64,000 nucleotides of DNA from Raillietiella orientalis (GCA_036172245.1 JAYWIR010000101.1:124001-188000), one strand, 5' to 3'. Shown: positions 3,811 to 51,500, counted from the first letter of the stretch. Numbers and translations are program-made. The notes: a model not told the origin generated them from the sequence alone.

Positions 3811-3926
<116 letters not shown>

Positions 3927-15745: not shown

Positions 15746-15967
15746 GGATCGCCCCCGGATCCCCCTCACCGGTGGTGGTATCAGGCATTGCTGCCTAATT
15801 CTCCACCCTTACCACGCACAACCACCAACGGAAATGAAACTCAGGAGCAGCGAAAAGACACGTCCGCTCGACCCTCAGCAATCTCCAGGATTGGGATCTT
15901 TTTAAGGTCTCGGTCCGCGAGTTTATCGAGGAGTTCCCCTTGCACCGCCTGCCCCGGGGATTTGGGG

Positions 15968-16290: not shown

Positions 16291-16300
16291 CGGCATACGG

Positions 16301-18334: not shown

Positions 18335-21300
18335 CAACCGTCGGTGCAGAAAGAGAGGAGGCGGCGCGTATAACGGACGCGACCTTCGCGCAGGCCGCGG
18401 AAGAACTTTCAGCCATGTTACGGCAGCCTGCCAAGGCCGAGAAGAAGGCCTTGAGACGACCGGCAACGGTGAAAGGCCCGGAAAATTCCGAGTCCGAAAC
18501 CGAAGCCGGTTGTTCTACTTCCGCAGCTGTGCCGAAGAGGAAGGCTGGCAAGAAGACCGGTTGCCCGAAAAGGGTCGCCCCTCCACAGGTGGATGAGGCC
18601 ATGTCTCCGGGCACGGAGGAGGAGGATATGTGCGTGGCGCCACGCGACCCCTCTCCGATCCGTGTCTCCGAAGCCAGCCCGATGGATGTCGCTGTGGAAG
18701 ACGTGCTCCCGTGTGAGCAGCCGACCGTCGTCACGGCCGCCAACGAGCCGCCTCCCGCAAGGGAGGAGGCCGCCTCCACCCCACAATAAACGCACCAATG
18801 CGTGGGCTCGCCTCCTGCCGCCGCTTGCGCATTACTTGGAACGTCAACGGGTTGCGCGACGACGGTAAGATGCGAGACGTAGCCGCCATACTGCGAGAAT
18901 TCGACCTTGTGCTCCTGAAAGAGACGCACGTTCTTAAAGCAGAAGTCCAGGAAATGGAAAGAATCGCGGGAGGGCGGCTACTGTGGAGGAACGGAAACGA
19001 CCGCTCCTGCGGAGTGGCCTTTATGCTGAAGCCAGCCGTCGACAACGCATTGCGCTGCGTGAGGTTCAAAGAGGAAGGTCGAGTTGGGCAGCTTCCGTTC
19101 AAGTGATCCGACTCGATCGACCTCATAGTCACGAACCTGTACGCTTCGGTGTGCAACCACAGGGCCGAGAAACGCACTGCGTTCTTTGAATTACTGCGGC
19201 GAGAGTGGCTGGCTGAAGCAAGCGTACGACGAGTGCACTTCATTGCGGGCGACTTCAATCTCCGCCTGCTGGCAGGTGCGCCGTGCATTCGAGCACGACT
19301 GGTCAACGAGTTTTGCGCAGCCATCAATGCGCGCAACTTGTTGGCCGGTGATGCCTGGAGAGATCGGAACATCGACTACATGTTCCTCGACAACCACCTG
19401 TGCAAGCAAGTGGGAACTCGAGGAACGCTCCCGGCACAGCTGTCCGACCATCCACGGCTCGTGCTTGAGATACAACCACGCGACAAGGGCGCTCCCCGGA
19501 AAACGTGGCGCCGCCCAAGGGACTAATGGCGCCTCGCAGGAGCGGCGGAACATCTGCGCGCCTTCCTGCGAGGATTCCATCTTGAGACGCTCGCGGACTG
19601 CGACGAAATGAAGTGCTCAGTCCGCGAGTTTTGCAATCAGTTTCCCCTGGAACATCTTCCGCGGGGCTTCGACGATGCCACCCGGATACGTCGGGACGTT
19701 TATTAAAAACATTTCGACAGTCAATACAGAACGTGGTACAAGGCCCCACTTACGACTACGCAATACCGGAACTGCCGGGACACCCGGACGCAGCCCGGTG
19801 TTGCTCTCCTCGGCAGTGAAGGGAGATGGGGGAGAAAACAAAAATAAAATAAAAGAGAAAAACAAACTACAAAAAAAAGTTTGGAGGGCCGGGAAGGGAT
19901 CACAGAAAACTGCTGGGAGCGCCCATCCTTTGCAGGAGGCCTTCTAGTTCCATTTTCAGTTTTCCTAGATGGGGCCATCGGGTAGCTCTCTGCAGGAAGC
20001 GAGAAGCATACTCGATGACGTCCCTCACGATGCAGACTTCATCTTCGGCATCACTCCAGGCCGCCACGATACCACGAATTCAGCAAAGTGCTGCCAGGGC
20101 TGCGGCTGGATTGAGGACGTCCCGCATGAAGACAAGACTGTAGACACATCCAACGATGCCACCATCCGGTATCCCAAGGGCCGTTTTAAGACGATTCCAA
20201 AGAATCTGGACAGCAGGGCATTCAACTAAGAGGTGGGGGAGCGACTCTCGCTCCCCACACCTGGCACACGCAGGATTAACTCTACCCCGCGTCCAGTGGA
20301 AGCGGCGCGCGTTGCAGGGTAGACCCCAATTCAGACACAGAAGCGCCGATACTTGCCACTTCAGGGGAAGAATCCTAAATCCAAGTAAAACCGGAGGCCA
20401 CTTCAGGTCATCCAATCGAATGCCGAGCAGCTCGCCCCATCTTCTTAATCCAAGCGGCTGGAGACTAGAGGTCGTTGCATCTGTCAACTCTCCCATGGTC
20501 AAGCAGCTCATCATCTTCTCTCTGCCTGCGATACGGCAGCAGACTTGCCACCTTGGCTTCCGACTTTCGTGAAGCGCTTTCTGGAGGAAGGGAATCGCCG
20601 TAACAAGCGGTGTGCCTTCCGCCCACCTGCAACTCTGTGGAAATTCAAGAATTTCACGGAGAGTTCGGCGGGCGTAAAAGCCGACTCGCAGGCAGTTAAT
20701 CCGGTCTTTGCACCTCTGGTTCTGCTTGGCCCACGTGTCAGCAGTCTCTTTCAGCCAAGCGGAGGACTTGGCGAAGCCACAAACCTTCCAGTCGTTCTCC
20801 TTTGCAAGGGTTGCCGAGCAGAAGACCGCATCTTCGAATCTTCCGGCAACGGTACAGAAGAAACGATGCGAGTCCATCGCACCGGGACACACAGCTGGCC
20901 AGGAGGCAGGCCGAAGTGCACCAAGGGGCGCTCCACATCTTCGCTAAGATGGCGAGGGTTCGCCACCGCAGCCGCTTCTCCACGCGCTCCAGCGTCAGGA
21001 GGCCAAGACCTCCTTCCCAACGCGGAGGGCACAAGTCCTTCAGAGGGACTCGGGGCCTCCCCTTGCCCCAAAGGGCGATACGGAGGAGGTCCTTTGTCCT
21101 CTTCTTCCATTCCACGGTGGGGAAGCAAACAAAAAGAAGAGGCGGAGGATGGGGGCCGCGAAGGCGTTCCAAACCGCGGCCCGTTCCGGCAAGTGAAACT
21201 TGCCTTCCAGGAACGGGCCGATCGCCGTCTCGACTTTTTGGAGGCAGCTGGACTACACTTCCGCAGGGGAGTAGTCCCGCAACGTCACACCAAGGTACTT

Positions 21301-24300
21301 GAAGCACCTTGCCGTGGGGATCCCCAGACGGAACCAGTGCTGCTGCCCTACCCACGCCGCACCTATTGGCACCACCGACGACTTAGCCCTGTTTACCTAC
21401 AGTCCAGTCCCGCGGTTGACCAGATCGAAGAATTCCCTGACCGTCTTTGCCGGGGTGGACATTGGCAACAAGAGCAGAAGATCGTCGGCGTAGGCTGTTA
21501 CGGCGGACGTGCCGGGGCACGAGCTCGGCAAGGGTGCCAAAGTTACCCTGTACGCTCTCAGCACCAACTCAAAGTAGGTGCTGAAGAGCAGGGGGCTGAG
21601 GCTATCTCCCTGCCTTATGCCCCGCCGCACCGGCATGCCATACACCTTGTGACCTCTGAAACAGACGGTAATCATCGCATTCTGTTAGCAAGGGCGCAAA
21701 TAGGAAATCATGGAGAGTGGGAAGCCCATGCGACCCAGGAGCTCCGAGAGTAGTTCCTGGTCTACACAGTCGAACGCATTGTGGAGATGGACTGCGAGCG
21801 CTAGGGCCCCCTTTTCCGATCGAGGGTCCCTTCCAAGCCAGGCTGGCGACCCCAATGTGGTGTTGCCGACTTTTCCTATCCCTTTCTTCTCTCTTCTCTA
21901 CAGGTGCACCCATGTGCTTGTGAAGAAGAGGTTGGCATCCATACTTCGCCCGGGAAAAGCATAAGTCTGCTCCGGGCTAATTACGGATACTGCCACCTAC
22001 CCCAGACGCGAAACCCATAGCCCTGCTATCAACTTGGCGTCCGTATTCACGATCGTGATCGGACGCCAGTTCCTTGAATCCCAGAGGTCTCCCCCTTTCG
22101 GAAGGAGTCTCACTCTGGCTGACCGTTACGAGGCGGGAACATCGCCTTCGTCTCGGATCAGCCTGATCAACTTAAGCAAATGGGATGCAGGTATTTTGCG
22201 AAGCTCTAGGAGAACTCCGCGGGCAAGCAGTCTCCCCCTGTAGCTTTACGCCTCTTGAGCCTTTTGATACCGGCCAGAATTTCGCAGGTGGTAAAATGCT
22301 TGTCGAGGATTTCCATCTCCTCCGCCCCTATTGACGAGGCGCCATCCGGAAGCAAGCGCCGAGAGTCGTCTCGATCTCGGGCTTTCTGGCGTAAAGAGAG
22401 GATTAAAAACACCGCACGAGATGCCGCACCGACGCCGGGGACGAACATTATTGGGCATGGTCGTCCAGGAAGCTGGCCGACCCGGATTGCCAGGCTTGGC
22501 GTTCGGCCCCGGCGCGGCACTCGGCCAGGCGACGGACATTAGGGGTTCTCTCGTAGCTACGAGCCTGTAAATAGGCCCGATGGTTGCCAGCACCCTCGCC
22601 GAATCCGGGGGGCAGACGATCCAGGGGGAACTGCTCACAGAACTCGCGGACCGATTCCTTAAAAAGGTCGCAGTCCTGGAGTTTCCGGAGCGTGACACCT
22701 CTCAGGTATTCGCGAAGGTATTCCTTCGCACCTGAGAGTCGCGTCCAGTCCCCCGGCAGACGCCAATCCCTGGATGGCGGTCCCTTGTCACGAGGCCGCA
22801 TCTCGAAAATTAACCCGGAATGGTCCGACAACGTCGACGCAACCCTCCCCCGTTTGCCGACGCCTGAACACAGGTCAGCGTCGAGGAAGACGTGGTCGAT
22901 GCTGCGGACCATTCCCCTCTCACCCGCGAACAAGTTGCGCGCACGTATGGCGGCGCACAACTCGTTCATCACGTTCACTTGTGTTTCCGGCTCACCTGTT
23001 TGCAGGCGGAGATTGAAATTTATCACCCGCTCACGCCGGGGCATTTATTTATAATAATAAACTAGTCAGAGACAATGTCACCAACCAACAGAAGGACAGA
23101 GAACATAGAAAAATTACCGGCACGCAGGCCTGGTAAACAAACCGCTCGCAGCGTGGGGGGAATGAGGGAAAACAAACAAAAATCAAAACCTGGAGGGAAG
23201 CGTAACGGGTTTTTGGTTAGATTCCGTACTCACGGGGATTCAAACGATGAGCACCTAAAATGTTCCGGAGCCTATGGGGACGCGGGTGTAAAAAGAAAAT
23301 ACAAAATTAGTTTATGGAGGGTAGGGAAATGATCACCGGGTTGGCCGCTGCTGAGCGTGTGTAAACTGGCGGTGTATTGCGGCGAGATTCCTTTTTGTCT
23401 CCTCTGTTAAATGAGGCCATCTAGCGGATGCTCCCATGTAGAAGGATGCTTTGCTGATTGCTTCTTGGTGGTGTCCGTTGATTACCAACGCCTGGCGGAC
23501 GGAAACTATCGCGCGTAAGCAACCGATGGTTGCAATCCTTGCGCTTAGCGACAGCCCGCTCGGAGTGAAGAATCGTCGCAGCAAGTTTCTTGCGGTGTCC
23601 ACTGGATGCATTAGTGCTGTTGCCAGCCTACGCCACAGTCCTTGTAGGACACCACAGTCCAGAAGTAGGTGCGGAATCGACTCCGTCGATCCGCACCGAA
23701 CGCAGTTCGCAGACGCAAGTCCCCCGGAGTCACGATGCCAACGCTCGTTGCACTGAAAACCCCAGTGAACGAAAAGCAGCACGGCTTCTTTTCAAGCAAG
23801 GGGAAGCAGCGAACTGTTAATACACTGTGGAGGTGCCACAAGTTCTTCGGGGGCGACAGCAAGTTCTTCTGCCCACCGGAAGAGTCCCTTTGCAGTAACA
23901 CGAGGAGTGGCGGCGTCCGCCAACTCTTTCGTCTTCCAGGCGCCAAGGAGTTTGGTTTTTCCCGCTATCGTGCAGGAAACCTCCCACCTCGCCGGTTGGT
24001 AACTGTCGTTTCTTGCCCTGAGAGAAGACAGAGCTGCGGCAAGAGGCGTGGCAGCCAGGGTAGAAAACTTCATTTCGTCCTGCAGCACTTCTTCCAAGGA
24101 TCGTGGAAAAAATTGGCGCAGGGGGCGAAGATCTTCAGGGCATAATCCTTGAAACGCCGCCCAGGATTCAATAGACTCCTGCCACTAAGCTCCAAAGTTC
24201 ATTGGGCGGCAGGAGATCCACGAGTGAGCTTCCAGAAGTGCAGTCAACTGCCGTAATGGAAACTCGAAACCCCGCTTCCTGTATTGAATGCCTGCAAAAG

Positions 24301-27300
24301 CGAGAGAAATCCTCCGCTGCCGGCGCATCTCCGCAGGAGAATGCGGGCTGGCACACACAGGGGGGAAGTCCATAGCGGGGCACACAGTGCCAGCAGTCGG
24401 AACTGCAGCTGCAGTCCGATTCGCTCCATTGTCAGGATACCCAAACCAGAATCCCGACGCGGAGCTAAGAAATCTTTAAGGCGGATCCTGGATCTCGCCT
24501 AACCCTAGAGAGCGTTCCTGAGCAGGCGTTTAGCCCGCTGTTTTGCCGCATAGGAGGGGGTCCAAGACAAAAAACAGGGGACGGAGGAGGGGGGCCACAA
24601 AGGTGTTCCAAATAGTCGCCCGTTCCTGCAAGGTAAACTTGCCGTTAAAGAAAGGGCTGTTGGCCAACTCTGCTTTCTGAAGACAGTCCGCCCACGCTTC
24701 GGCTGCGCCCAAAGCGTCCAACGGAACGTCTAGGTACTTAAAGTACGCGCCCGTGGGGATCCCCAGGCGGATCCAGTCGGACTGCCCCTCCCACGAAGTA
24801 CCCACAGGAACGACCGCGCTCTTCTCTCTGTTCACGCTCACGCCCGCTCCCCGACGAATCAGTTCGAAGAAATCCTCGACACTGGACGCCGGGGTGGACA
24901 TGGGGAGCAGAAGAAGCAGGTCATCAGCGTAGGCGGCCACGGCAGGCGTTCCCGGTTAGGAGCTTGGCAAGTGAGACAGCGTCAGCCTGTATGCTCTTAG
25001 CACCAACTCAAAGAAGATGCTTAAGAGCTACGGGCTTAAGCTGACGCCCTATCGGATGCCCCTACGAATGGGAATACCATACACGCGGCAGCCGGTGAAA
25101 GTAATGCAAATTGGCGCGTGGCGCAGGCACGCGCGCAAATACAGCAGGAGTTGCGCCGGGAACCCAAGGCGTTCCATAAGCTTCAAAAGAAGCTTCTGGT
25201 TTACGCAGTCGAACGCCTAGTGGAGATCGACCGCGACCGCTAAGGCACCTGGGGTTCCCTCCTGCAGTCGGCGCCTGTTCTTCTTGCCTGCGGCAGTGAC
25301 TTTCGTAGCAGCCTGGCTTTGCTGCGCCACAACTTCCTGCAGCTGCATCCATGTACGCGCGAAAAGGATGTTCGCCTCCATGGATCGTCCCGGAACCGCG
25401 TAGGTTTGTTCCGGGCTCACCACAGATTCCGCGATACTTCCTAACCGCGCGACCCACAGCTTGAAAAACAACTTGACGTCCGAGTTCACCAACGTGATCG
25501 GACGCCAGTTGTTAAGTTGACGCAAGTCTCCGCCTTTCGGAAGGAGACGCACCTTCGATGAGCTGAAGGAATCCGGGACATTCTCGGATTCACTCATCAG
25601 CGTCGCGAGTTTCAGCATCAAGGGAATGAGCTCCACTGCAAAGCACTGATAAAACTCTGCAGGAAGCCCATCCTCGCCTGGCGCCTTTCGTCTCTCCAGC
25701 CCAGCGATGGCGGACGAAAATTCATCCGCCGTGAAGGGCTCGTCGAGACGTTCGCGTTCCTCCTCGCCGACAACACGAGCATCCTGAGATAGGAGTATCT
25801 CAGAAAGAATATCCTTTGTCGGTAATTCCGCGTACAGAGAGGAGTAGTAGCGTCTCACAATGCGGCGTACTTCGGCTGGGGCCGAACATTCCTGGCCCTT
25901 GTCGTCCAACAGGCATGATGCTCCGGACTGCCAGACCTGTCGCTCGGCCCTTGCCTTGTACTCTGCGAGACGCCCGACATCGGCGCGTCTCGAAAACGTG
26001 TGGGCCTGCAGAAAGTCTCTACTGTTGGCCACACCCTCTCCGAAACCGTGTGGAAGCTGGTGCAAGGGGAATTGGCAGCAGAACTCGCGGACAGATCTTT
26101 TGAGATCGTCCCAGTCCGCAAGTTCTTGAATGGCAAAGCCTCGGAGGTATCCACGTAGATGCTCCGCAGCCTCCGGTTGGCTAAGCCAATCCGCCTGCAT
26201 CCTCCAGTTTTGCAACGGAGGCCCCGTGCCTGGCGGAAGGATCTCAAACTCCAACCTGTGGTGGTCAGAAAGTCGGAAAAAAAAACAAAGGAATCACAAA
26301 AAAAAACAAAAACTCCAAAAAACAATAATAATAATACAAATCAGAACGCGAGCGTTCACAAAAAACCCGCGGTCGGCAAACCGAAAATTTCACCGCACGG
26401 GGCCATAAAGGAATGCCGCGTTACAATCGAACGCGTTCCGTCGATCGAGCCTCGATCGGCGAACGCGACTCCCGGAACCGTTGCGAACGCCGCGGAACCG
26501 CCGCAGGAATCCTGCCACAAACACGCGAGCAGCAGCGACGAGAAAAACTTCGCGAAGGCGGCGGAGAAACTCGCGGCCAACTTAATGCAGCCGCCTAAGG
26601 CTGCAAAGAAGGCCGTAAGACGTCCGCCGGAAGTTAAGGGCCCGGAAACTTCCGGGTCCGAGGCGGAAGCCGGGAACCCTCCCACCGTCGCCCTTCCGAA
26701 GAGGAAGGCGGGCCGGAAGTCGCGCAACCCTATGCGCGTCGCTCCCCCTCAGGCTGAGGAGGAGGAGATGCGCTCGGATAGCGAGGAGGCGATGTCCGCG
26801 AGGTCGCGGGATCCCTTCATCAACAGCATTCGGTCGGTCCTTCCTATCGACCTCAGTCCGGCTGCAGACGTTCCGGTCGTTGCTGAAATGCCACCAACTC
26901 AGATGGATAACGACCAGCCGCCTTCCGAACAGGAGGCGGCAATACACACGCCACCACCATCACTAGTATGATGCGTGGAATCGCCTCTTTCCGGCAGCTG
27001 CGTATAGCCTGTTGGAATGTCAACGGGCTGCGTATCGAAAGCAAGAGGCGTAACGTGGGCAACACCCTGCGACCTTTCGATCTGGCACATCTTTAACAGG
27101 TGCATGCCCTCAGAGCAGAGGACGTTCAGGAAATCGAGAGGCTCACAGGGGGGAGCTACTTTGGCGTGGTGGAGGAGACCACTCCCGCGGAGTGGCCTTC
27201 CTGCTGAAGCCGGCCGTCGCCAATGCGGTGCACAGTGCACAGTTCGACGAGGAATGTCGAGACGGACGACTTGTCCTTAAGTGGTCCGAATAGATCGACC

Positions 27301-30066
27301 TCGTAGTCACGAACCTGTACGGGCCCTGCACCTGCCACAGGCGCGCAGAAGGCATTGCGTTCTTCGAAGCCCTGCGGCGAGACTGGCTGGTCGAAGCAGG
27401 CGTGCGGCGTGCGCATCTGATAGCGGGAGACTTCAACGTCCGCCTGCTGTCGGAAGCGCCCGACATACGAGCACAATTGGTCAACGAGTTGTGTGCAGCT
27501 ATGCACACACGCAACTTGTTGGCCGATGAAGCCGCGGGGAGAAGCATAATCGACCACGTGTTCCTCGATAACCACTTGCGTACGCGGGTGGGGACTCGAG
27601 GAGCAATTGCGTCGGAGCTGTCCGATCACCCTCGGCTAGTGATCAACATTCATCCGCTCGACAGAGGTCCACCCTCCGAAGCGTGGCGCCTGCCGCGGGA
27701 CTGGTTGCGACTCGCAGGAGCGCGCGAACATCAGCGCGCATTGCTGCGTAGTTGCGAATTGTAGACTCTTGCTGACTGGGAAAAAATAAAACGCTCAGTC
27801 CGAGAGTTCTGTGACCAGTTTCCCCTCCATCAACTTCCTCCAGGTTTCGGCGATGCCACCCGGATACGCCGGGACGTTTATTAAAAACATTTCGACGATC
27901 AATACAGAACGTGGTACAAGGCCCCACTGACGGCCACGCAATACCGGAACTGAAGGGACACCGGAACGCAGCCCGGTGTGGCTCTCCTCGGCAGTAGAGA
28001 GGGATGGGGAAGAAAAGAAAAATAAAATAAAAGAGAGAAGCAAACCACAGAACAAAAAATTTCGAAGGCCGGGAAGGGATCACAGAAAACTGCTGGGAGC
28101 GCCCATCCTTTGCAGGATGCCTTCTAGTTCCATTGTCAGTTTTCCTAGATGGGGCCATCGGGTAGCTCTCTGCAGGAAGCGAGAAGCATACCCAATGACG
28201 TCCCTCACGATGCAGACTTCATCTTCGGCATCACTCCAGGCCGCCACGATACCACGAATGCAGCAAAGTGCTGCCAGGGCTGCGGCTGGACTGAGGGCGT
28301 CCCGCACGAAGACAAGACTGAAGACACATCCAACATTGCCACCATCCGGTATCCGGAAGGCCGTTTTCAGACGATCCCAAAGCATCTGGACGGCAAGGCA
28401 TTGAACTAAGAGGTGGGGGAGCGACTCCCGCTCCCCACACCTGGCACACGCAGGATTTACTCTTCCTTGCGTCCAGTGGAAGCGGCGCGCGTTGCAGGGT
28501 AGACCCCAATTCAGCCACAGAAGCGCCGATTCTTGCCACTTCAGGGGAAGAATCCTGGATCCAAGTAGAACCGGGGGCCACTTCAAGTCATCCAATCGAA
28601 TGCCGAGCAGCTCGCCCCATCTTCTTAATCCAAGCGGCTGGAGACTAGGGGTCGTTGCATCTGTCAACTCTCCCATGGTCCAGCTGCTCATCATCTTCTC
28701 TCTGCCTGCGATACGGCAGCAGACTTGCCACCTTGCCTTCTGGCTTTCGTGAAGCGCCCTTTGAAGGAAGGGCATCGCCGTAACAAGGGGTGTGCCTTCC
28801 GCCCACGTGCAACTCGGTGGAAATTCAAGAATTTCACGGAGAGTTCGGCGGGCGTAAAAGCCGACTCGCAGGCAGTTCATCCAGTCTTCGCACCTCTGGT
28901 TCTGCTTGGCCCAGGTGCCAGCAGTCTCTTCCAGCCAAGCGTAGGAGTTGGTAGGGCCACAAACCATCCAGTCGTTCACCTTTGCCAGGGTTGCCATGCG
29001 GCCGAGCAGTAGACCGCATCTTCGAATCTTCCGGCCAGGGCACAGAAGAAACGATGCGAGTCCTTCGCAGCGGGACACACGCCTAGCCTGGTGGCGGGCA
29101 GGAATGCACCAAGGGGTGCTTCACATCTTCGCTGCCATGGCGAGGGTGCGCCATCGCAGCTGGATTTCCACGCGCTCCAGCGTCAGCATGCTGAGACCGC
29201 CGTCCCGACGCGGAGCGCACAAGTCCTTCAAAGGGACGCGGGGCCTCCTCTTGCCCCAAAGAGCTATGCGGAGGAGGTCCAACGTCCGCTTTTTTAATAA
29301 TACGGGGGCGGGGCAAACAAAAAGCAAGGGGCGGAGGATGAGGAGCGCCAAAGCGTTCCAAACCGCGGTCCGTTCCGGCAAGTGAAACTTGCCTTCCAGG
29401 AACGGGCCGATCGCCGTCTCGACTTTTTCGAAGCAGCTGGATCACACTTACGCAGGTGAGAAGTCCCCCAACGGCACACCGAGGTACTTGATGCACCTCA
29501 CCGTGGGGATCCCCAGACGGACCCAGTCCTGCTGCCCTGCCCTCGTCGCTCCAACTGGCAAAACTGACGACCTCGCCCTGTTAACCTGTAATCCGGCCCT
29601 ACGGCTGAGCAGGTCGAAGAAATCTCCGACCGCCTTCGCCGGGATAAACATAGGTAAGAGGAGCAGAAGATCGTCGGCATACGTCGCCACGGCTGGCGTA
29701 CCGGGGCACGCGCACGGCAAGGGAGCCAAAGTCACCCTGTACGCACTCAGCACCAACTCAGTGTAGGTGCTAAAAAGCAGGGGGCTGAGGCTGTCGCCCT
29801 GCCTTATGCCCCGCCGCACCGGCACGCCATACACCTTTTGTCTACTGAAAGTAATTGAGATTATCGCGTTCCGCCAGCAAGAGCGCAGGTAGGTAATCAA
29901 GGAGGGTAGGAAGCCCATGCGACCCGGGAGATCCAAGAGGAGTTCCTGGTCAACACAGTCGAACGCCTTGTGCGCTCTAGAGTGGACGTGTTTTCTCGGT
30001 GCTCCTCGTGCCAGGAAGTCTCCCCCAGTGCAAGCGTCGTGTGGTTCGGTGGTCGATCAGGCAGCG

Positions 30067-31729: not shown

Positions 31730-31743
31730 TCTTCCCAGCAGTA

Positions 31744-34700: not shown

Positions 34701-35331
34701 ACGCGAAAAGTTGATCAGCGGCTGGACAACAGGAGAACTGGGAGACGCTACGACCCCGAACGTCCAGCCGCGAGGACTAAGAAGATGGGGCGAGCTGCTG
34801 GCCATCCCTATGGATGTGCTGAAGTGGCCCCCGCTTCTTCAGGAATCCAGGATCCTGCCCCTTAAGTGGAAAGAGACGGCGTTGCTGTTGTTTCATTGGG
34901 GTTTACCCTGCAACGCACGCCGCTCTCACTGGACAAGAGGAGTTGTGGATCCTGCGTGTGTCAGGTGCGGAGAGCGGGAATCGCTCTCCCACCTTATTGT
35001 GGACTGTGCTGCCCTTAGTCCCCTTTGGGAACGGTTTAGGACGATCCTCGGTCTCCCAACGGGCAGTTCCCCTAGAGACGTTCTTCGGCCCCTCTTCGTG
35101 AAGGACGCTCTGCAGCCAGCCGCAGCCTTTGGAGCCTTGTGCTGCTTCCGAGGCATCGTGGCGGCATGGAGCGACACCAACAAGGAAGGAGTGGGTCAAC
35201 ACGCGAGGGATGTCATCCCATATGCCCAACGCTTCTTGCATAGAGCTGCTGGATGGCCCCAACTGGGGAATCTACGGATGGACCTCGAGGGCTTCCTTCA
35301 AAGGATGGGCCCTACTCTCAGCGAACAGTGA
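31744..35331 (+). pseudogene. ORF2 APE-RT-CCHC, disrupted
   Basis: NVNG, GDFN, IDHVF, SDH, KAPGEDG, YADD, KYLG, CCHC; several stops and frameshifts. Confidence 0.9.
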
Positions 35332-35563
35332 TCCCTTCCCTGCCCCCCAACCTCATTTGTTTGTTTGCCTTTTTGTTTTTATTTTTGTTTTTCCCCATCC
35401 CCTTTCGCTGCCGGGGAGTGTCACGCCGAGCTGCGTCCCGGCGTCCCGGTAGGTCCCGTGCATAAGGCCGTGAGCGAGGCCTGGTACCGCAATTGTAGAG
35501 TTTTTATAAATGAACGCCTCGGGCGTTTCCGGGTGGCAACGCCGAATCCCCGCTGTGGGGAGC

Positions 35564-35576
35564 GGACGTGCTTTTC
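35564..35576 (+). promoter_or_regulatory. Conserved leader motif GGACGTGYTTT (candidate internal promoter element)
   Basis: Also at 15427(+), 15865(-), 29984(+), 47408(-), 49845(-), 53106(+, TGACGTG). Confidence 0.6.
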
Positions 35577-35781
35577 CTGCGCTCCGCCTGCGTGGCAAAG
35601 CGAGTGTTTTTTCTTCTTGCGTGATTTGTGCGTGCACATCGTCGGTGTCCGATGGCAGCGTTGCCAGAGGACACCGCGATGGAAGTAGGCGTGATGGAGG
35701 CTTGTTCGTCCCCACAGCCTACTGGATTAGGGGCATGCGCCCCCGGAATCGTCCCCGGCGACGCCAAGGTCCTAAAGCGCC

Positions 35782-40500: not shown

Positions 40501-41121
40501 TTGACTAGCGGCTGGACAAGAGGAGAACTGGTCGATGCCACGACCCCGAGCGTCGGGCCGAGAGGATTATTAAGATGGGGCGAGCTGATCGCCATCCCCA
40601 GGGATGAGCTGAAGTGGCCCCCGGTGATGAAAGAATCCAGAATCCTGCCCCTCAAGTGGCAAGAGTCGGCGTTTCTTTTGTTGCACTGGGGTCTACCGTT
40701 CAAGGCGCGCCGCTTCCACTGGACGAGGGGAGCTGTGGATCCTGCGCGTGCCAGGTGCGGGAAGCGGGAGTCTCTCCCCCACCTTATTGTGGATTGTGCT
40801 GCGCTCCGACCCCTTTGGGAACGGTTCGGGACGACCCTCGGGCTCCCTACAGGCAGCACCCCCAGAGACGTTCTTCGGCCCCTCTTCGTGAAGGACGCAC
40901 TGCAGCCCGCCGCAGCCATCGCAGCGTTGTGCAGCGTCCGTGGCATCGTGGCGGCATGGAGCGACGCTAAATACGAAGGCGTGGGTCCACAGTGGCGGGA
41001 TGCCATCCCGTCTGTCCAACGCTTCTGGCGAAGAAATGCCGTATGGATCCAACTGGGGAATATGAAGACTGACCTCGAGGGCTTCGTTCGATGGATGTGC
41101 CCTCCCCACAGCGACCAGTGA
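37527..41121 (+). pseudogene. B ORF2 APE-RT-CCHC, disrupted
   Basis: ORFs 37760-38992, 39011-40288 and 39700-41121 carry all domain motifs. Confidence 0.9.
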
Positions 41122-44100
41122 TCCCTTCCCCGCCCTCCAACTTGATTTTGTTCGTTTCTTTTTCTTTTTCTTTTTGTCTTATCCCCATCTTCCTTCGCTG
41201 TTGGGGAGTGCCACGCCGGGCTGCGTCGCGGTGTCCCGACAGGTCGCGTGTTCACGGCCGTGGTGGGGCCTCGTACCACGCATGTAGAGTTCACAAATAA
41301 ACGCTCCGGGTGTAAACGGGTTACAACTTTAAATCCCCGGCGCAGACGTTGCACAGGGATCTGTTCGCAGAACTCCCGGACCGAGTCCTTAAATAGGTTT
41401 CAATCCGCGAGACTCTGGATGCTGACGCCTCGCAGGAATTCGCGAAGATGTTCTTTCGCTCCTGACAGGCGCGTCCAGTTTCCTGGCATACGCCAATCCC
41501 TGGATGGCGGTCTGTTGTCGCGCGGGCGCATCTCGAAAACTAACCGGGAATGGTCCGACAGCGTCGATCCAAGTGTCCCTCGTTTTCCGACCCGTGTGCA
41601 CAGGTCTTCGTCGAGGAAGACGTGGTCCACGCTGCTGACCATCCCGCTTATTTCTGTCAACAAGTTGCGCGCGCGCATGGCGGCGCACAACTCGTTGATC
41701 GCGTTACCCTGTGCTCCGGGCTTATCTGAGAGCAGACGGACGTTGAAATCCCCTGCTATCAGATGCGCCTTTCGCACGTGCGCGTCCACCAGCCATTCGC
41801 GCTCCAAGGTTTCCAGTAACGCGTTGCGCTGCTGGTATCCCTGTTTACCGCTAGGAGCGTACACATTGGTGACGATGAGGTCGATCGAATCGGACCATCT
41901 GAGAATCAGTTGGGCGATCCGTCCGTCGTTCCCAAAGCGCACGCCCTTCGCGGCCGCGTTAATAGCTGGCTTTAGGAAGAACGCGACCCCACAAGTGTTG
42001 CGGGAGCCGCATCGCCAGTACAACCGCCCTCCCGCGATCGTTTCGATCTCCTTGCCGTCTTTTGCGGTGATCACGTGGATCTCCTGCAAAAGCTCCAGGT
42101 CGAAATCTCGCAAGGTGGCGGCTGTATCTCGTCTGTTTCCGTCGTCGCGCAGCCCGTTAACATTCCAACTGGCCGCGCGGATCCGACAGCGACAGGCGAG
42201 TCCAGGTTTTATTTCTGGGAACCTGGCGGTGGTGCTCCCGCCACCTTTTGGGGCGGGTCGCTGGACGGGGTTGGCGTCTTGCCCACGAACTCCCCATCCT
42301 TCTTTCGTGCCGACGTCTCCGGCTGCCCGTGCGAACGGGGTGTTGTTCGTACCTGTTGGCCCACATCCATTGGTGCGGGTGGTTCAGGTTCGGCGGTTTC
42401 AGAGGGCATTGCTGACCCCTGGTTACCCTCCTCCATTGGAGTCGCCTCCTCGTCGGCTTCCGCACGTGGGTGATGCCCGACTTGGGCTCCCACGCTGCCA
42501 TCCACTGGTTCCTCTACCATTGGATCCCCCTCGCGCGGAGGCGCAATGCACCTTCGGGGTTTCTGGGATTTTCACTCACACCGGCTTTCGGCGAAGGCGT
42601 GAGGAACGACAGGTACTATCTCCAGACCCGTCGTTCCTCCAACAAGCCCGACGTCCGACGCCTGGCGGAGACTAAGGCTGGAGCGGAGAGGTAGGCCTGG
42701 CAATCCGGGTCTGCCTGCTTGCTGGACGAAGAAGGCCAAAAGCACTCATCTTCAGCGCAGGTTTCCCGCATTCTGCGGCATTTCTATTCGTCCCTTTACG
42801 CGCTGAGACCACCAGAGCGCTCCTTTGCGCAGCGCCTGCTGCCAGAGGGTGCTCCCGCGTTGAGGGAGGAAGAAATAAACATCTTCCTCCAAGAGTTCAC
42901 GATGGCGGAGATAATCTCCGTCATCACTAAATTGAGAAAAAACAAAGCACCAGGGGAAGACGGCCTGCCAGCTGAATTCTACCAACACTTCGCGGCAGAG
43001 CTGCCCCCCCTGGTGCTAAAACCATGTATGCTGATAGGTGAACGTGGGGATGTCCCCAACTTGTTCCGGTCAGCTAGAGTACCTCTCCTTCCTAAGGCAG
43101 GAGACTTGCGCAACGTTGGCAACTGGCGACCCATTACTGTAGTGAATGCGGACGCAAAGTTGCTCGCCAAACAGTGGGCTGAGCGCCTGGGACGGGCTGC
43201 GGACTTCGTGGTCAGTCCGGAACAGACATACGCTGTTCCCGGACGAACCATGGAGGCCAACCTGTTCCTCGCCAGCACATTCTGGAAGTTGCAACAACGC
43301 GAGGCGCAGCTACGGCGGGAAAGTCCTGGACTCTCCATTGACAACGGGGAGGAAAGCCGAAAAGAAGATGCGTCGCCTGGAGCCCTTGCGGTCGCAGTCG
43401 ATTTGCGTAAAGCTTTCGACTGCGTCGACCAAGAGCTCCTTTGGGAGCTCCTGAAACGCTTGGGATTTCCGGCCGTCTTTCTGGCTTACCTGCGCTCCTG
43501 CTGGCGGTTCGCGCTCATCAATTTCAATTTCAGCGGCCGGCACGTGTTCGGCGTACCGGTCCGTCGTGGCATCAGGCAGGGTGACAGCCTCAGTCCCCTG
43601 CTCTTCAGCATCTACTTTGAGTTGGTGCTGAGAGCATACAGGGAGACTTTGGCAACCCTGCAGAGCTCGTGTCTCGGCACGCCTGCCGTGTCGGCCTATA
43701 ACGACGATCTTCTGCTCCTGCTTCCCGGGTCCACCACGGAATCGGCGCTCGAGGATTTCTTAGAGTTGCTATACCGTGGGACAGGCCTCCAGGTAAACAG
43801 GACGAAATCGTCGTTGCTTTTCACCGAATCGACGAGGGCCGGACCGTCGGACTGGATCCGCTTGGGGATCCCCACGGGCAGGTACATCAAGTACCTTGGC
43901 GTTCCGTTGGAAGACTTCTGCTCTGCAGAAGCCTGGTCCGACCGTCTACAAAACGTGGAGCTGGCGATCGGCCCGTTCCGAAACGGCTAGTTCCACTTGC
44001 AGGAACGGGTCACGGTATGGAGCGCTTTCGCGGCCCCCTCCTTCGCCCCCTACTTTTTGTCTGCCCTACACCTTACCAAATTAGGACACGGACTAGAAGT

Positions 44101-45549
44101 CTTATACGTAAAGCCCTCTGGGGCAACCGGAGGCCCCGCGTCCGGCTCAAAGACTTGTACGCACCACACAGGGACGGTGGAATGGTCTCCTGACGTTGGA
44201 GCGCATGGAGCGACAGCTATAATTCAGAAAACTTGCCCTTGTGGCAAAGTTTTGGACAGCACCCTGGTCTGCACCAGCAAGACTCCTTGCTCACAGGGCA
44301 ACCGGCTGCTTCGGATTGACTTCAATCCTGGTAGCCAACGAACGCAGCCTGAACCATTGTGGTTATCAGCTGCGGGATTTGGTTGCTCTGATGAGAGACA
44401 ACCCTTGGATCTCCTGCATCCCAGCGGACTGGACTACCTGACTTCAGGAGTCCGTATCCGCATGGGCGAAGATCAATGGCACCAGCGATGAGGACTTCTC
44501 CTGCCTCCGCAGAGGGAGGCACGCTGGTCAGCCACTCCAGGAGATCGTTTCCAACCCACGGAAACTTCTGTGGGCTTCCTCCACCCCCTTTACCCCAGTG
44601 CTGCCCTCCCTCAGGGAAGTACGGGACAGCAACCAACAGGCATCGTGAGAAGTGTCCTGCCTCATCGGAGGCAGGAAGAAATTACTGAAGGCGTGAACGC
44701 CGACGGAACTAGAGGACGCTAGTACCCCGAGTGTCCCGCCGAACGGACTTTTACGCTGGGGAGCGCTACTCGGTATACCTCCGGAGGAGGTGAAGTGGCC
44801 CCCAGCGTCATGGGACAACGGCACCCTTCCTCTGCAGTGGCAGGAGACATCGTTGCTTCTGCTCCACTGGGTACTTCTAAGCAGAGCACGCCTGTCTCGC
44901 TGGACATCGGGGAATGTGGATGGTAGTTGTGCAGAGTGCGGGGAAAGGGAGAATTTCCTCCACTTGATTCTGAAGTGTGTTGCCCTTCACGAAATGTGGG
45001 ACAGACTCTCGTCGATCCTCAACATTCCGGGGGGTAACCCGAAAAATTTATTCAGACGCCTTCTGACGCCATACGGCTTGCCAGCCTCCGGGAGCGTAGC
45101 AGTGCTCTGCCGCATACGCGGTATCCTGGAGAAGTAGACCGCGTCTAGGAGAGGAAGGACCAGCCGGGATGCCATCCACTGGGCAGCGATCTCCTTGGAG
45201 AAAGCGTGCCGTTGGCGCAGAATTCAAAAACATTTACCGGCATTTGTCCGCATCCGAAACCGGATGCAAAGTCCTGCTCACGGCGCACCGTGATCCCCTC
45301 CCTCCCTCCCCCTCCCCAAAAACATTGCCCTCCAGACGTTTTTCTTTTTTTGTTTTGTTTTCTGTTTATTTTCCCCTTCTTGGCGCCGGTGAAGGACTTT
45401 ATCGGCCTCCGGGTCGATAAAGACAAGTGCTACTGAACTTCAAAGAACGTCTCACGTCCGAAAAAGAAAAATTTCAACATAGATTTTATTACAAAATTTT
45501 GTAATGTAAAAATTTTAGTAATAAAAGCCACGGCTTACCCGGGTGAAAA

Positions 45550-47360
45550 ATCCCGTCGGGTTTCGTGGAGACTTCGCGTTGCTTCGCGGCGAGCGTTTCC
45601 TGGCTGCCTACTTTTGGTCGGCGTGCACACGCTTTTGAACGAGTTGTCCTCGTCTTGGTGATCGGAACGGCATCCATTTCAGAGTCAGACCGGCGCATGT
45701 TCGATCGCGTTCCGGCCTTCCGCGAAGTAGTGACAGGTTCTGCTGATTTGACAGCTGTCCTGTTGTCATTTTCCGTCTCCAGAGCATCGCTTTTGGTGAC
45801 GCCTGCTTTCCCGGCGCGCGCGTTTTCAGCGTGCTCACGCGCAGTTGCACGAGGGACCTTTGCTGTAGTCTTCTTTACTTCATTACGGTTCCTCACTTCG
45901 CGTGGCGCCGTAAATGGAGATTGTGCTCCATGGCCATCTTTGAAGCCGTCCGCGTCTTTGGACGGGAGCACTTTCGATGGCTCCGACACGCTCGTCATGG
46001 ACGCTGCTTTCGGAAGGGCTTTTAATCCCTTCGTTGGCATGGCATCCGCGCCAGTCGAGAGCTTGCTCTCCGACTGCGACGGCGTGAGATTTTTCTCCGC
46101 TTTCGCGGGGTTGGATCGCGACGCGGATTTTTTTTTGCCGACTTTCGAAGTCGACACGGCACAACCCTTCTTACCCGATTTGGGCTTCTCAGCCACTGCA
46201 GGAGGTGAAGGAATGGATCTGACGGTACTGGAAGTGTCCTTACCGCCGTTGTCCATTGGCGTCCCCGCCGGTTGCTCGAACTCCGAGAGAGCCGGGCGTG
46301 CTTGGGAAGGACAGCTATTGCGCCTAGGGGGACTTACCATTGCCCCGGTTTCCCCGCACCCTTTCTTTTGCGGCTCCCCTGCCGCGAGAGGGGGTGCGCA
46401 GGGCTTCGCGTGCGAGGTTTCCTGCTGCTTTGGGGCGACATTCCGCCTCGCGTTTTTACCGAATTTCTGCCGTAGGGTCTCCAGGTTTTTCGCAGATTTT
46501 TTCTTTTTATCCGCGCTTTGTTCTTTAAAATAGAGCTCCGCGGCTGCCTTTTTTCGCAAAAGATCCGGGCAATTTTTCAATTGGTGCCCGGATAGTTTGC
46601 AATAACGGCATTTTCCAGAGGGGCATTTATCCAAACAATGCCCCTCCTTCCCGCATTGCTCGCACGTTTTTACTTTGCCCACGAACCACAGGTGAACGAC
46701 CGTGTCTTTCACCTGTAGTTTGGTGGGCAGCAGACGGCGGTCCGGCATTGTAAGCCGGACTCCAGCGACTCCGCTGTGTATGGACGGGAAGTTCTTGAGG
46801 TTGCTACGCACCTTCCACAGCGCATGGACCGTGGCGAATTTCGCCAACGCGTTCCGAATATCAGTATCGGAGATTTCCGACTCGATGTCGAAAATCTCCA
46901 CCACAAATGAGTCGTCCATGGCGGCCGGGATGACCTTCTGGCCACGGATCGACAACGGGGTGCGCAGCAAGCGTTGCACAAGTGCAGCGTCTTTGCAACG
47001 CACGTTGAAATAGCCCATGTCTTTTGCGGGCATAATGGCGAGAAGGTCCTCCTCCCGCACGCCAACACGGGTCAGTTCATCGTTGAACTGATTCCCGTCG
47101 CGCGCAGAAAGAAAACCACTCACCTTATATCGGAGAGCAGGTCTATAGCCTTGGGCTACGTATGCCCGCAACTCCGACTCGTCGAGTGGTTTCCCTTTGA
47201 CGGCTGCTCTGGCAGCAACGTCAGCAAAACTCCTCTCCATTGGCGAGAAAGACGAAGTGGAGGCGGCCGTCGGTTCCGCGATTGCAGATCCGGATGCTGT
47301 TCCTCCAACTTCAGTAGCTTCAAGTTGGGTCGACATCGTCGTCAAAATGTACGACGCCAA
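45550..47360 (-). pseudogene. Lineage E ORF1 (gag-like, two CCHC), truncated by the C insertion
   Basis: ~600 aa open; CEQCGKEGHCLDKC and CRYCKLSGHQLKNC. Confidence 0.85.
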
Positions 47361-48440
47361 GATGAAGCGGATGAAAGCACGGAGACGAGAGCGAAGAAAA
47401 ACACGTCCGCACTCGATTGAAATCTCCCGCTATTAGGTGAGCCTTCCGCACGTGCATGTTCGCCAGCCAGTCGCGCTTCAGGTATTCCAGCAGCCTGGTA
47501 CGGTTGCTGTATCCCTTTTGACCGCTTGGGGCGTACACATTCGTGACGATCAGATCGATCGAGTTGGACCAGCCGAGAGTCAGCTGACTGACCCGACCGT
47601 CGTCATCGAAGCGCACGCTCTTCACGGCAGCGTCGATGGCCGGCTTCACGAAGAACGCTATCCCGCAGGTGTTGCGGAGGCCGCATCGCCAATACAGCCG
47701 ACCCCTCGCGATCGTTCCGATTTCCTGGGTGTCTGCCGCGGTGATCACGTGGATCTCCTGCAGCAGCGCCAGGTCGAGCTCACGCAGGGTGTCGGCTGTA
47801 TCTCGGCTGTTGCCGTCGTCGCGCAGCCCGTTGACGTTCCAACAGGCCGCGCGAATCCGACGGCGACTGGCGATCCCAGGTGTTAGTTTTGTGAAAACGG
47901 CGATGCGGCGTCCGCCACCTGCTAGGGCGGGACGCTAGGTGGAGGCGGAGGGTGGACAGGTACTGAAGGCACCTGTTCCTCCTCCTCTATCGGTGCCGCC
48001 ACTTCGGCCGGATCACCCGCAGGTGGAGTCGCGCCTACCTGTTCGCCTTCCTCCATTGGTTCGGGCGGCTCAGGTTTCGCGACTGCAGGGAGGATTTCAC
48101 CCTCCTGCTCACCCTCCTCCATGGGGGTGGCCGACTTGACGGCTTGCGGGCGTGGGTGTTCCCCCTCCGGGATTCCCACGCTGCCGCTTCTTTCCGGCTT
48201 CTCCTCTTTTCTGGTGGAGGGGAGGCGCCTCCTGGGTTTCTGGGACTTGCGTCTCGACTTCCTATGGGGTGCCTCCGGAGAGGAGGATCCGCTTCCGGCC
48301 CCCAGGTCGCACTCACCTGCGGGGGCCTTCTTCGTCGGAGGCGACCTGCGTGCGCCCTTGCGCCACGGGGTTTCGCGCTCGGCGAGGGTTTCTGCGAGCT
48401 CCTCCGCCGCTTTCTCGAAGGCCGAGTCTTCGCCAGGGGC

Positions 48441-48554
48441 GAACGTTGCCGCGGGCTCCTCCGCGACTTTATCGAGCGCGGCCTCCTGGATGTCGGCGAA
48501 CGTTGCCGCGGGCTCCTCCGCGACTTTATCGAGCGCGGCCTCCTGGATGTCGGC
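48441..48554 (-). repeat. Perfect 2 x 57-bp in-frame tandem repeat in ORF1
   Basis: ADIQEAALDKVAEEPAATF twice. Confidence 0.95.
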
Positions 48555-51500
48555 GAGCGAGTCTCGCGTCTCACTCTCTAACCGAGAATCGGCTCCTCCA
48601 CGCGAGTATTCATCGCGTCCGCATGAGCTGTTGCGCGAACATTGCCGCTGGCGTACTCGACAGGAACGGCTAAGCGTTCCAGCGCCACCGAGCATTCGCA
48701 GAGTTGTTTTTTTGTTGAAAGCGGTGCGGGTTTTTTTTTGTTGCCGGCAGTTTTCTTCTCCGACTTTTCTTCTGGCATTAATTTCTTTTTTTTTTCTTTC
48801 CTGGCCTGAACCAGCTGCCAACCCTCCTCCATTTCCGCTTTCACGGGAGCTCTTTCCTCCGACGTCTGTACGGGAGGAAGTGAGGCTGGCAGTTGGGAAC
48901 GGCCATTTTCGCAAGCTGGTCTTTCTACCAGCTTTCCACGTTTTCCCTGCGCCTTTTTGGCGGCAGGGCGCACCGGGGTGGGGCGCTTGAGGCACACGCG
49001 CCGAACGTGACCCTTTTCGCCGCATAGGTGGCACACAGTGTTCGGGCACCTTTTTCGTAGATGCCCTACTGCATTGCAGTAGCCACAAAATTGGCGTTTT
49101 CCCACGTACCAGAGGTCCACCGCTTCTTGGCAGACCTCCAGCTTATGGGGAAGCGCACCACCCTCTTTTACCGTGATACGCGCCGCAGCTTGACCTCCGA
49201 AAAGGCTATTGTAGCCATGGAAAATCGTGGACTTCGGCCACAACGCGTGAACTTCTCCGTGCTTTTGAGGCTGTTCTCGAACCGCTGACCTCGTCATGCG
49301 ACTTGAGATCCCAGTGAGATGGACCACCACGGAGGGGTCCATCGTTATCGGCAAGATCTTACGACCATCAACGATCAGCGGGTCGGTGATCGGGTGTCGG
49401 GCCAAGGTGATATCATTGCATACCACCTCGACCCGCTGCCCGCCGCTGAGAACGTAGAGGCCGTCGAGATCTTTTTTGAAAATATTGGCGTTCTGCAGCG
49501 CCTTCGTAAAGGCGCGTGCAGTTCGCTCATCGAAAAGGTTGCCTACCTTGAAGACTAGCGAGGGTTTATACACCGCTTTCTTGTAGGCTTCCATCTCGGC
49601 CATGGCTTCTACGCTAGGCGCGGCCACCATGACGCTCCATGACCTCGGCGTCTCCGGGGACGATTCCGGGGCGGATGCCCCTGATCCAGTAGGCTGTGTG
49701 GACGAACAAGCCTCCATCACGCCTACTTCCATCGCGGTGTCCTCTGGCAACGCTGCCATCGGACACCGACGATGTGCACGCACAAATAACTCAGCAAGAA
49801 ACTACTCGCTTTGCCACGCTGGCGGAGCGAAGGAAAAGCACGTCCTCTCTGCACAGCGGGGATTCGGGGACGGATTCAGGAACGAGCGGTCATACCTTCA
49901 GGCCCGCAGTTATTCCAGGCGTCCCGACGTCCGTCGCCTGGCAGAATTCAAGGCTGAGGCGGAGAGGCAGGCCTGGCAGTCAGGCTCGGACTGCTTGCTG
50001 GACCATCAGGGCTAAGAACGCTCCAACCCAGCTCAGGTTTTTCACGGGGGTAAGCCGGGGCTTCTATTACTAAGATTTCGAGATTACAAAATTTTGTAAT
50101 AAAGTCTTTGTTGTTGAAATTTTTTTTTTTTAGGACGTCAGACGTTTAGTAGAGAAGTACAGTAGCACTTGTTTTTACCGATCCGGAGGCCGATAAGGTC
50201 CTTCACTGGCGCCGGGGAGAGAAAAATAAAAAGAAAACAAAACAAAAAAAGAAAAACGTCTAGAAAACAATGTTTTTGGGGAGAAGGAGGGAGGGAGGGG
50301 ATCACCGTGCGACGTGAGCAGGCCTTTGCATCCGGTCACGGGTGCGAACAAGTGCCGGCAAATTTTTTCGAAGTCGCCGCCAACGGCACGCTTTCTACAA
50401 GGAGATCGCTTCCCAGTGGATAACATTCCGGGTGGTCCTTCCTCTCCTAGACGCGGTCCACTTCTCCAGGATACCGCGTATACAGCAGAGCACTGCTACG
50501 CTTTCGGAGGCTGGCAAGCCGTCTGGCGTCAGAAAGCGTCTGAATAAATTTTTCGGGTCACCCCCCGGAATGTTGAGGATCGACGAGAGTCTGTCCCACA
50601 TTTCGTGGAGGGCAACACACTTCAGAATCAAGTGGAGGAAATTCTCCCTTTCCCCGCACTCTGCACAACTAGCATCCACATTCCCCGATGTCCAGCGAGA
50701 CAGGCGTGCTCTGCTTAGAAGTCCCCAGTGGAGCAGATGCAACGATGTCTCCTGCCACTGCAGAGGAAGAGTGCCGTTGTCCCATGACGCTGGGGGCCAC
50801 TTCACCTCCTCCGGAGGTATACCGAGTAGCGCGCCCCAGCGTAAAAGTCCGTTCGGCGGGACACTCGGGGTACTAGCGTCCTCTAGTTCCCTCGGCGTCC
50901 ACGCCTTCAGTAATTTCTTCCTGCCTCCGATGAGGCAGGACACTTCTCACGATGCCTGTTGGTTGCTGTCCCGAACTTCCCTGAGGGAGGGCAGCACTGG
51001 GGTAAAGGGGGTGGAGGAAGCCCACAGAAGTTTCCGTGGGTTGGAAACGATCTCCTGGAGTGGCTGACCAGCGTGCCTCCCTCTGCGGAGGAAGGAGAAG
51101 TCCTCATCGCTGGTGCCATTGATCTTCGCCCATGCGGATACGGACTCCTGAAGCCAGGTAGTCCAGTCCGCTGGGATGCAGGAGATCCAAGGGTTGGCTC
51201 TCTTCAGAGCAACCAAGTCCCGCAGCTGATAATCACAATGGTTCAGGCTGCGTTCGTTGGCTACCAGGATTGAAGTCAATCCGAAGCAGCCGGTTGCCCT
51301 GTGAGCAAGGAGTCTTGCTGGTGCAGACCAGGGTGCTGTCCAAAACTTTGCTACAAGGGCAAGTTTTCAGAATTGGAGCATTCGCTCCATGCGCTCCAAC
51401 GTCAGGAGACCAAGTGCACCGTCCCTGCGTAAAGCGCACAAGTCTTTGAGCCAAACGCGGGTCCTCCGGTTGCCCCAGAGGGCTTTACGTATAAGGCCCC

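Follow-up and report, generated by a model that had tools for sequence, protein, structure and literature searches.

A probable six-layer nest of poly(A)-less LINEs in Raillietiella orientalis with recurrent insertion at coding motifs of sibling elements

Insertion of long interspersed nuclear elements (LINEs) at a fixed place inside another mobile element is described for the Tx1 group. In the parts of the report consulted (Kojima 2015, PMC4494074), Tx1 occupies the Tx1D transposon, Tx1-Mar occupies Mariner-N4_AMi, and Tx1-8_Crp and Tx1-4_AMi occupy retrotransposons of the long terminal repeat (LTR) kind. The same parts use >20% of flanks as the criterion for target specificity, and they describe tandem insertions that sandwich a copy of the target and 5' extensions derived from the flank of a master copy. 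The Zepp and ZeppL elements of green algae insert into their own copies and form GC-rich, LINE-only nested clusters, as given in the passages covered (Blanc 2012, PMC3446292; Craig 2021, PMC8226300). For R1Bm of the ribosomal DNA, the portion of the source consulted assigns the choice of insertion site to the apurinic/apyrimidinic (APE)-type endonuclease (PMC1919474). The DNA analyzed here is a stretch of 64,000 nucleotides from Raillietiella orientalis (GCA_036172245.1 JAYWIR010000101.1:124001-188000; the window), in which a stack of LINEs extends from position 18335 to 50038. R1 and R2 are sequence-specific LINEs whose target is a multicopy gene of the host, and to our knowledge they build no nests. 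Zepp elements end in poly(A) at the 3' end. In the intergenic LTR-retrotransposon stacks of maize, the Russian-doll order gives the relative ages, with the inner elements being younger.

The stack resembles the Tx1 group, as far as the consulted parts of that report describe it, in that APE-type LINEs appear at a fixed place inside another transposon. It differs in that the targets are coding motifs of sibling LINEs and that several families have a site each. The likeness to the Tx1 clade is one of behavior, with the best named relatives being no more than 30% identical. The GC-rich, LINE-only nested build-up is like that of Zepp and ZeppL in the passages covered. Those passages describe one family per genome and mostly tandem 3' ends, whereas at least five families and full-length copies are found here; they name no fixed codon target for Zepp, in contrast to the apparent one at this locus. 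Unlike Zepp, none of the 14 3' ends in the window carries poly(A), and the DNA around the nest looks animal-like. As in R1, the last bases of an element match its target: an A-type tail ending in TCGA lies beside a TCGA of the host. Unlike R1 and R2, the target is another LINE. The maize stacks differ in being made of LTR elements with no fixed target site and regular 5-bp duplications. In the literature searched, coding motifs of sibling LINEs are not among the reported targets of target-specific LINEs, which are RNA genes, microsatellites, DNA transposons or LTR elements. A full-text search, outside of which lay most subscription journals and supplements, returned no account of several LINE families homing to codon motifs of sibling LINEs.

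The window is GC-rich (57-64%) and is built of non-LTR retrotransposons from approximately 10 kb to its end. The first open reading frame (ORF1) of the long frames contains a CCHC knuckle. The second (ORF2) matches the Pfam domains Exo_endo_phos and RVT_1 on several copies and zf-RVT weakly, and by this domain match the copies qualify as LINEs that encode an APE endonuclease together with a reverse transcriptase. The families present number at least five (A, B, C, D and E), their ORF2 sequences differ by 25-50%, and most of the insertions are of one family into another. Protein searches gave no close named relative, with the best named match at no more than 30% identity. One relative was found at 65-66%; the rest are at or below 42%, the better ones over short stretches. 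The distant matches come from fish, amphibian, coelacanth and plant sequences, and an Atlas comparison returned generic LINE endonuclease/reverse transcriptase clusters only.

A single 3' motif is common to all 14 of the 3' ends in the window and consists of an AATAAA box, a short GC hairpin and CCGGGTG. The AATAAA box lies 25-35 nt upstream of the element end and is followed by the GC hairpin (for example at 58682-58745) without poly(A). Beyond the motif there is a short tail that differs by family: GGCATCG for B2 and B5, GGCAAC(G) for U and X15b, TTACAAC for V, GTAAAC for R, AAAA for the C-type, AAAATCGA for the A-type, and GATAA for E. Reverse transcription seems to start from this defined tail. 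The 5' ends share a GGACGTG...TTTTC box. A metagenome scan with a 16-nt B-type tail found 119 loci, and none of the 119 has the LINE 3' motif upstream, so these are chance matches.

The pieces of the stack were mapped using tblastn with a near-intact copy, R (53105-58740), as the reference, and the boundaries were set by motif positions. The ORF2 of R has 1,130 codons with one in-frame stop, and the first 556 codons are open. The interval 18335-50038 resolves into twelve complementary pieces of seven LINE copies, nested as D(+) > B2(-) > E(-) > C(+) > B5(-) > U(+),V(+). The strands of the pieces from left to right are + - - + - + + - + - - +. The twelve pieces are as follows (aa, amino acids of the ORF named).

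18335-19671, + strand: D_L, the 5'-truncated outermost LINE with the end of ORF1 and ORF2 aa 1-256, ending in the second Gly codon of G-F-G
19672-23019, - strand: B2_L, the 3' part of layer 2 with its tail at 19673-19685 and ORF2 aa 1130 down to 110
23020-26272, - strand: E_L, the 3' part of layer 3 with its tail at 23020-23030 and ORF2 aa 1130 down to 175, breaking at S-D-H codons
26273-27853, + strand: C_L, layer 4, 5'-truncated, with a Lys-codon-rich part of ORF1 and ORF2 aa 1-256, ending at G-F-G
27854-29969, - strand: B5_L, the 3' part of layer 5 with a tail that overlaps 27851-27863 and ORF2 aa 1130 down to 525, ending at the H|K-A-F-D codons
29970-35541, + strand: U, a full-length A/B mosaic with the 3' tail GGCAACG
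35542-41327, + strand: V, a full-length B-type copy with a 16-nt leader at 35542-35557, its tail end at 41327 abutting the antisense G-F-G of B5
41328-42572, - strand: B5_R, the 5' part of layer 5 with ORF2 aa 258 down to 1 and ORF1 aa 393-275, 5'-truncated by approximately 1,620 nt
42573-45549, + strand: C_R, the 3' part of layer 4 with 13 nt, then TTTCGGCGA at 42586-42594, ORF2 aa 247-1129 and the 3' tail GTGAAAA to 45549
45550-47414, - strand: E_R, the 5' end of layer 3 and ORF1 with 621 open codons and two CCHC knuckles, cut before the stop
47415-49866, - strand: B2_R, the 5' part of layer 2 with ORF2 aa 114 down to 1, ORF1, and the 5' end with a leader at 49852-49866
49867-50038, + strand: D_R, the continuation of D with ORF2 aa 250-311, cut again at 50038/50039

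The pairs D_L/D_R, B2_L/B2_R, E_L/E_R, C_L/C_R and B5_L/B5_R thus enclose the full-length copies U and V. All five split copies have one half on either side of the insert; the halves are complementary, and each is found a single time. Since no host segment is present more than once, the two sides complement each other and do not form an inverted duplication. Chance cannot yield twelve pieces that complement one another in the right order and orientation. The order and the depth of six had been put forward in the original prediction, made from the sequence alone, and both the tblastn map and the motif boundaries agree with them. No piece named there is missing. The limits proposed there, 18335..50039, hold to within one base as outer coordinates. 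They do not enclose the whole of D, which continues past them: D is cut at 50038/50039 by another copy, X50, the start of a second stack that runs to the end of the window. What remains of D must lie beyond the window, so that the nest exceeds 31.7 kb.

Identity matrices covering five windows of ORF2 were used to compare the two halves of each split copy. B2 is 88-95% identical to V and R in either half. B5 stands out from the rest of the B group with both of its halves, which lie at a similar relative depth once scaled by the inter-family distance. D_L and C_L are 71% identical, and D_R and C_R are 72.8% identical; C_L matches X63 at 91.7%, and C_R matches X50 at 94-96%. Judged from these sequence comparisons, the halves agree in family and no discordance is seen, apart from E, a divergent family at 47-70% to all others in the window, for which the comparison cannot be made. 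Phylogenetic discordance between rejoined halves had been named in advance as an outcome that would speak against the nest.

Excision of E together with its contents leaves a rejoined B2 that is collinear with V (87.9% over 5,738 columns) and that aligns with R at 81.6% over 5,551 columns, so that the collinearity proposed as a check is borne out. The sole extra sequence in the rejoined B2 is an exact 9-bp duplication, GATTGAAAT on the + strand, found at 23011-23019 and 47415-47423 at the two flanks of E as predicted. The duplication falls in the G-D-F-N codons of the B2 endonuclease. At the insertion of B2 in D, D_L breaks off within the last Gly codon of L-P-R-G-F-G, and D_R takes up the frame with D-G-F-R-N, with 0-1 nt duplicated. 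C_L halts at the same G-F-G place as D_L, and B5 is flanked by an exact 9-bp repeat, TTTCGGCGA, at 27845-27853 (the end of C_L) and 42586-42594 (in C_R). Both GFG and GDFN had been proposed as insertion sites, and the motifs at the junctions agree. No duplication accompanies the insertion of C in E, and both ORF2 aa 1-174 and the end of ORF1 are missing from E. These aa 1-174 are found nowhere in the window by the tblastn map, so C sits in a deletion without a duplication, in line with the host deletion suggested earlier. B5 and E are collinear save for one internal deletion each. In B5 approximately 810 nt are absent between G-F-G and H|K-A-F-D (aa 259-525). Duplications at U and V are unscorable, the B5 segment between the insertion sites being absent.

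These junctions also permit another account of the middle of the stack, in which layers 4 and 5 are hybrids of two C copies, each with a B insert at GFG, that were joined by homologous deletion. The same deletion would have taken the missing part of E, more insertions would be needed, and the depth would still be six. This history would explain why C has no duplication and why E has lost ORF2 aa 1-174 and the end of ORF1. It also fits the two G-F-G flanks of B5, which differ at 6 of 13 positions beside the exact 9-bp repeat, and the same kind of deletion gives the best reading of U (see below). The two halves of B5 nevertheless stand at the same relative depth in the B group, and no second copy of any segment is left in the window. 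Integration of L1 is known to yield insertions with target deletions and filler bases, which further counts against a rearrangement here. We regard it as possible but doubtful.

The positions of the 3' ends were compared across the window, a single region in which the counts are small. Four of the 14 3' junctions, namely those of X15b in X15, B2 in D, B5 in C and V in B5, border on the antisense G-F-G of a LINE host, all four at the same nucleotide. At a fifth junction of this type, the 3' end of U abuts the G-F-G-like 16-nt leader at the 5' end of V. The seven B-like 3' ends are thus divided into four at the G-F-G of a LINE host, one at the G-F-G-like leader and two elsewhere, and independent B-like copies recur at the same nucleotide of the same target. 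X58, an A-type copy, has its 3' end next to the antisense K-A-F-D, where 6 bp (AGCTTT) are duplicated, and the same K-A-F-D host nucleotide borders the 5' ends of X52 and U.

V (35542-35557) and B2 (49852-49866) begin with an identical leader of 15-16 nt that R does not have. A host duplication was considered as its source and rejected, since the leader is identical in two different hosts and missing from R; it therefore probably travels with the element. Read antisense, the leader encodes R-G-F-G and rebuilds the target at each new 5' junction. By analogy with the 5' extensions of the Tx1 group, it is probably a relic of the target flank of a master copy. The sandwiched targets and 5' extensions in the consulted parts of the Tx1 report match the U/V junction and the 16-nt leader of V and B2.

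The D/B2 and C/B5 junctions are crossed by one collinear blastn alignment (18999-21783 against 27177-29972, 84.6%), as would be expected if host and insert had been copied together, the two composites descending from one ancestral insertion by segmental duplication. The identities on either side of the junction contradict this: the hosts D_L and C_L are 72.5% identical (913/1260) and the inserts B2_L and B5_L are 88.3% identical (1853/2098; chi-square p = 3e-31). B2 is full length, B5 is missing ~1620 nt from its start, and the two hosts are from different families. A duplicated composite is hardly credible. The gap between host and insert identity and the differing truncation instead indicate independent insertions into hosts of two families.

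The repeated use of a single nucleotide at GFG, together with KAFD, points to target-specific insertion as the real cause of the nest. The LINEs could also have piled up without any target in a gene-free haven that tolerates them, in which case the shared sites would be a coincidence or would reflect a loose preference for DNA shape. Such a pile-up would accommodate X5k, which lies in non-LINE DNA, and R, which lies in an ORF1, as well as E, C and X50, each of which has a single and different site in the window. It would have to place five of the 14 3' junctions on one nucleotide of an element of ~5.7 kb, the likelihood of which is ~1e-10 for uniform insertion (by arithmetic, with no simulation). 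The constant orientation, the hosts of four families and the three A-type junctions at one K-A-F-D position also argue against it, and we consider untargeted insertion improbable.

The seven-base sequence CCGTCGG appears three bases after the C-type tails of X16 and C (18335-18344 and 45550-45559). It belongs to the sense strand of the D ORF1 at X16 and to the antisense strand of the E ORF1 at C; the third C-type end, that of X50, is without it. CCGTCGG may be a short sequence target for the C-type family.

The copy U had been described as an A/B chimera. Up to ~34200 it is of A-type (94-99% to X12), and from ~34250 it is of V-type (91-96%), with the switch lying within a stretch of the reverse transcriptase where the families are 83-89% alike. 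The mosaic is real, but its origin as one inserted unit is the weaker explanation. At its 5' junction U has the proper K-A-F-D site of the A-type, and at its 3' junction the proper G-F-G site of the B-type. These end sites are approximately 810 nt apart in B5, and exactly that piece of the host is absent. A single insertion would not set its two ends on the sites of two families. U is better read as a scar left by deletion between two separate layer-6 inserts, one of A-type at KAFD and the other of B-type at GFG, which is more likely than a single inserted element. Deletion scars of this kind can look like chimeric elements.

The frequency of stops and frameshifts in ORF2 was used as a measure of age. 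The values per kb are 3.2 for D, 4.7 for B2, 2.8 for E, 3.3 for C, 1.6 for B5, 1.8 for U and 0.9 for V, and they fall with depth (rho -0.76, p 0.049, n=7). Private substitutions within family B were counted over 2,202 ungapped columns. B2 has 117 of these, distributed over the codon positions as [48, 29, 40] (p 0.10 against an even distribution), and V has 68, distributed as [21, 11, 36] with a bias to the third position (p 0.0009). The even distribution in B2 and the third-position bias in V indicate that the layer-2 copy has been in neutral decay for longer than the layer-6 copy. Inner copies are thus younger than outer copies by both measures, and the comparison of divergence with depth, suggested as a check, agrees with the order of insertion. 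The presence of B elements at layers 2, 5 and 6 had been taken to mean that the lineages overlapped in activity. The order supports this for the B group in the broad sense only; identities among B2, B5 and V range over 77-95%, and their 3' modules differ.

The in-frame stops in ORF2 of D, B2, E, C, B5, U and V are mostly at Trp and Gln codons. The changes are from TGG to TGA, TAG or TAA (including double changes from TGG to TAA) and from CAG to TAG, which suggests that decay is biased to the transitions C-to-T and G-to-A. A difference in age between E_L and E_R was considered and rejected. The ORF1 in E_R has 621 open codons vs 8 in-frame stops in E_L, and transition-to-stop opportunities number 28 in E_R and 100 in E_L; the difference is not significant.

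A false nest built from wrongly joined repeat contigs was weighed against these data. The region is entirely repetitive, and a public run (X1, Logan contigs) contained 15% of the sampled words in contigs that are 90-99% alike. At this level of identity the contigs derive from other copies or from a relative, and they test neither the assembly nor the targeting. Among the 8 listed of 291 X1 records, none spans a junction with 31 letters on each side; one record starts at 23002 and another stops at 26272. The window contains no N, and its copies differ by at least 4%. A false join would not yield twelve mirror-ordered pieces or an exact 9-bp duplication at a distance of 24 kb, and misassembly is judged very unlikely. 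An X1 contig of 3,755 letters matches E_L (25202-26272), with the match ending exactly at 26272 and 2,684 letters continuing beyond it. This contig may be an uninterrupted copy of E.

Taken together, the stack is likely a genuine product of nested insertion through target-primed reverse transcription, carried out by related APE-type, poly(A)-less LINE families, at least two of which have fixed sites in the ORF2 of their siblings. The following points weigh against this interpretation. D_R is just 172 nt long, and for E the window offers no relative with which to compare the family of E_L and E_R. A clear duplication is found in two layers only (E and B5), with 0-1 nt at B2 and none at C. The first 13 nt of C_R (42573-42585) match the end of C_L at 7 of 13 positions before the exact 9-bp repeat, and C_L and C_R may derive from two C copies. 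Two of the seven B-like 3' ends are off GFG, namely X5k in non-LINE DNA and R in the ORF1 of an A-type copy, so the choice of site is strong but not absolute, or depends on the tail. Complementarity, like a duplication in conserved codons, counts for less here than it normally would, and the nest was read from the assembly. When insertion is site-specific, flanks will fit even if they come from different hosts. Fitting flanks and duplications are therefore poor proof that two halves belong together in such elements, and if fixed sites are chosen, the concordance of family and the lack of spare segments outweigh the fit of the junctions.

In the history that we propose for nested, targeted insertion, B-type and A-type elements would both insert antisense, the former after base 2 of the second Gly codon in the conserved G-F-G triplet at ORF2 aa ~250 and the latter at the reverse transcriptase codons K-A-F-D. 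E, present as one copy, lies in sense orientation in the endonuclease codons G-D-F-N. D would be the first copy, followed by B2 into D at GFG and E into B2 at GDFN. C would then have entered E with the loss of ~0.6-0.9 kb of E, and B5 would have entered C at GFG. Three insertions make up the innermost layer. V would have entered B5 at GFG, the target restored at the 5' junction of V would have received a second B-type copy, and KAFD an A-type copy. The A-type copy and this second B-type copy have the same direction, and a homologous deletion between them at a later time would have given rise to the mosaic U and taken away aa 259-525 of B5. The data show the map, the junctions, the duplication, the agreement of the halves and the trend in age, whereas the specificity of cutting, the order of these last three insertions and the deletion are inferred.

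A broader interpretation, to which we lean by a small degree, is that at least five sibling families form a guild, the endonuclease and 3' tail of each homing to its own conserved motif in the ORF2 of the others (G-D-F-N in the endonuclease, G-F-G in the linker and K-A-F-D in the reverse transcriptase). Each insertion in such a guild would kill a rival copy and supply new targets, LINE-only islands would assemble themselves, and the nests would record the sequence of family activity. LINEs that appear to land on the catalytic codons of one another would represent a new class of target. Mutual targeting, if true, would explain self-building gene-free LINE islands and bears on competition between mobile elements; it would also provide several natural endonucleases with distinct short targets. 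The locus offers a clean relative time-line for five LINE families.

The second stack, to the right of the nest, contains the following copies.

50039-52188, - strand: X50, a C-type copy antisense in D at aa 311, the first layer of the second stack
52189-53104 and 58742-62930, antisense in X50: X52 and X58, an A-type copy that splits X50 at K-A-V-D with the duplication AGCTTT
53105-58740, same direction as the host A-type copy: R, near-intact, splitting the X52/X58 copy in ORF1
from ~63056, + strand: X63, which cuts X50, the latter resuming at 62931

The interval 12013-16300 to the left of the nest shows the same pattern. X15(+), which covers aa 208-256, lies between the 5' end of X14(-) at ~15869 and the 3' end of X15b(-) at G-F-G. 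Antisense at aa 22 of X14 there is a 3' fragment of ~210 nt (14450-14663, + strand), and X12(-) and X10b(-) are arranged head to tail. The copy X16 ends at 18334, and D_L directly follows its 3' tail. The first part of the window (1-10400) is the edge of the LINE island, with a GC content of 42-54% and TA/CA microsatellites near 3745-4017. Small LINE scraps are found at this edge at 10020-10334, and X5k is an isolated B-like 3' fragment of 700 nt at 5254-5968 within non-LINE DNA.

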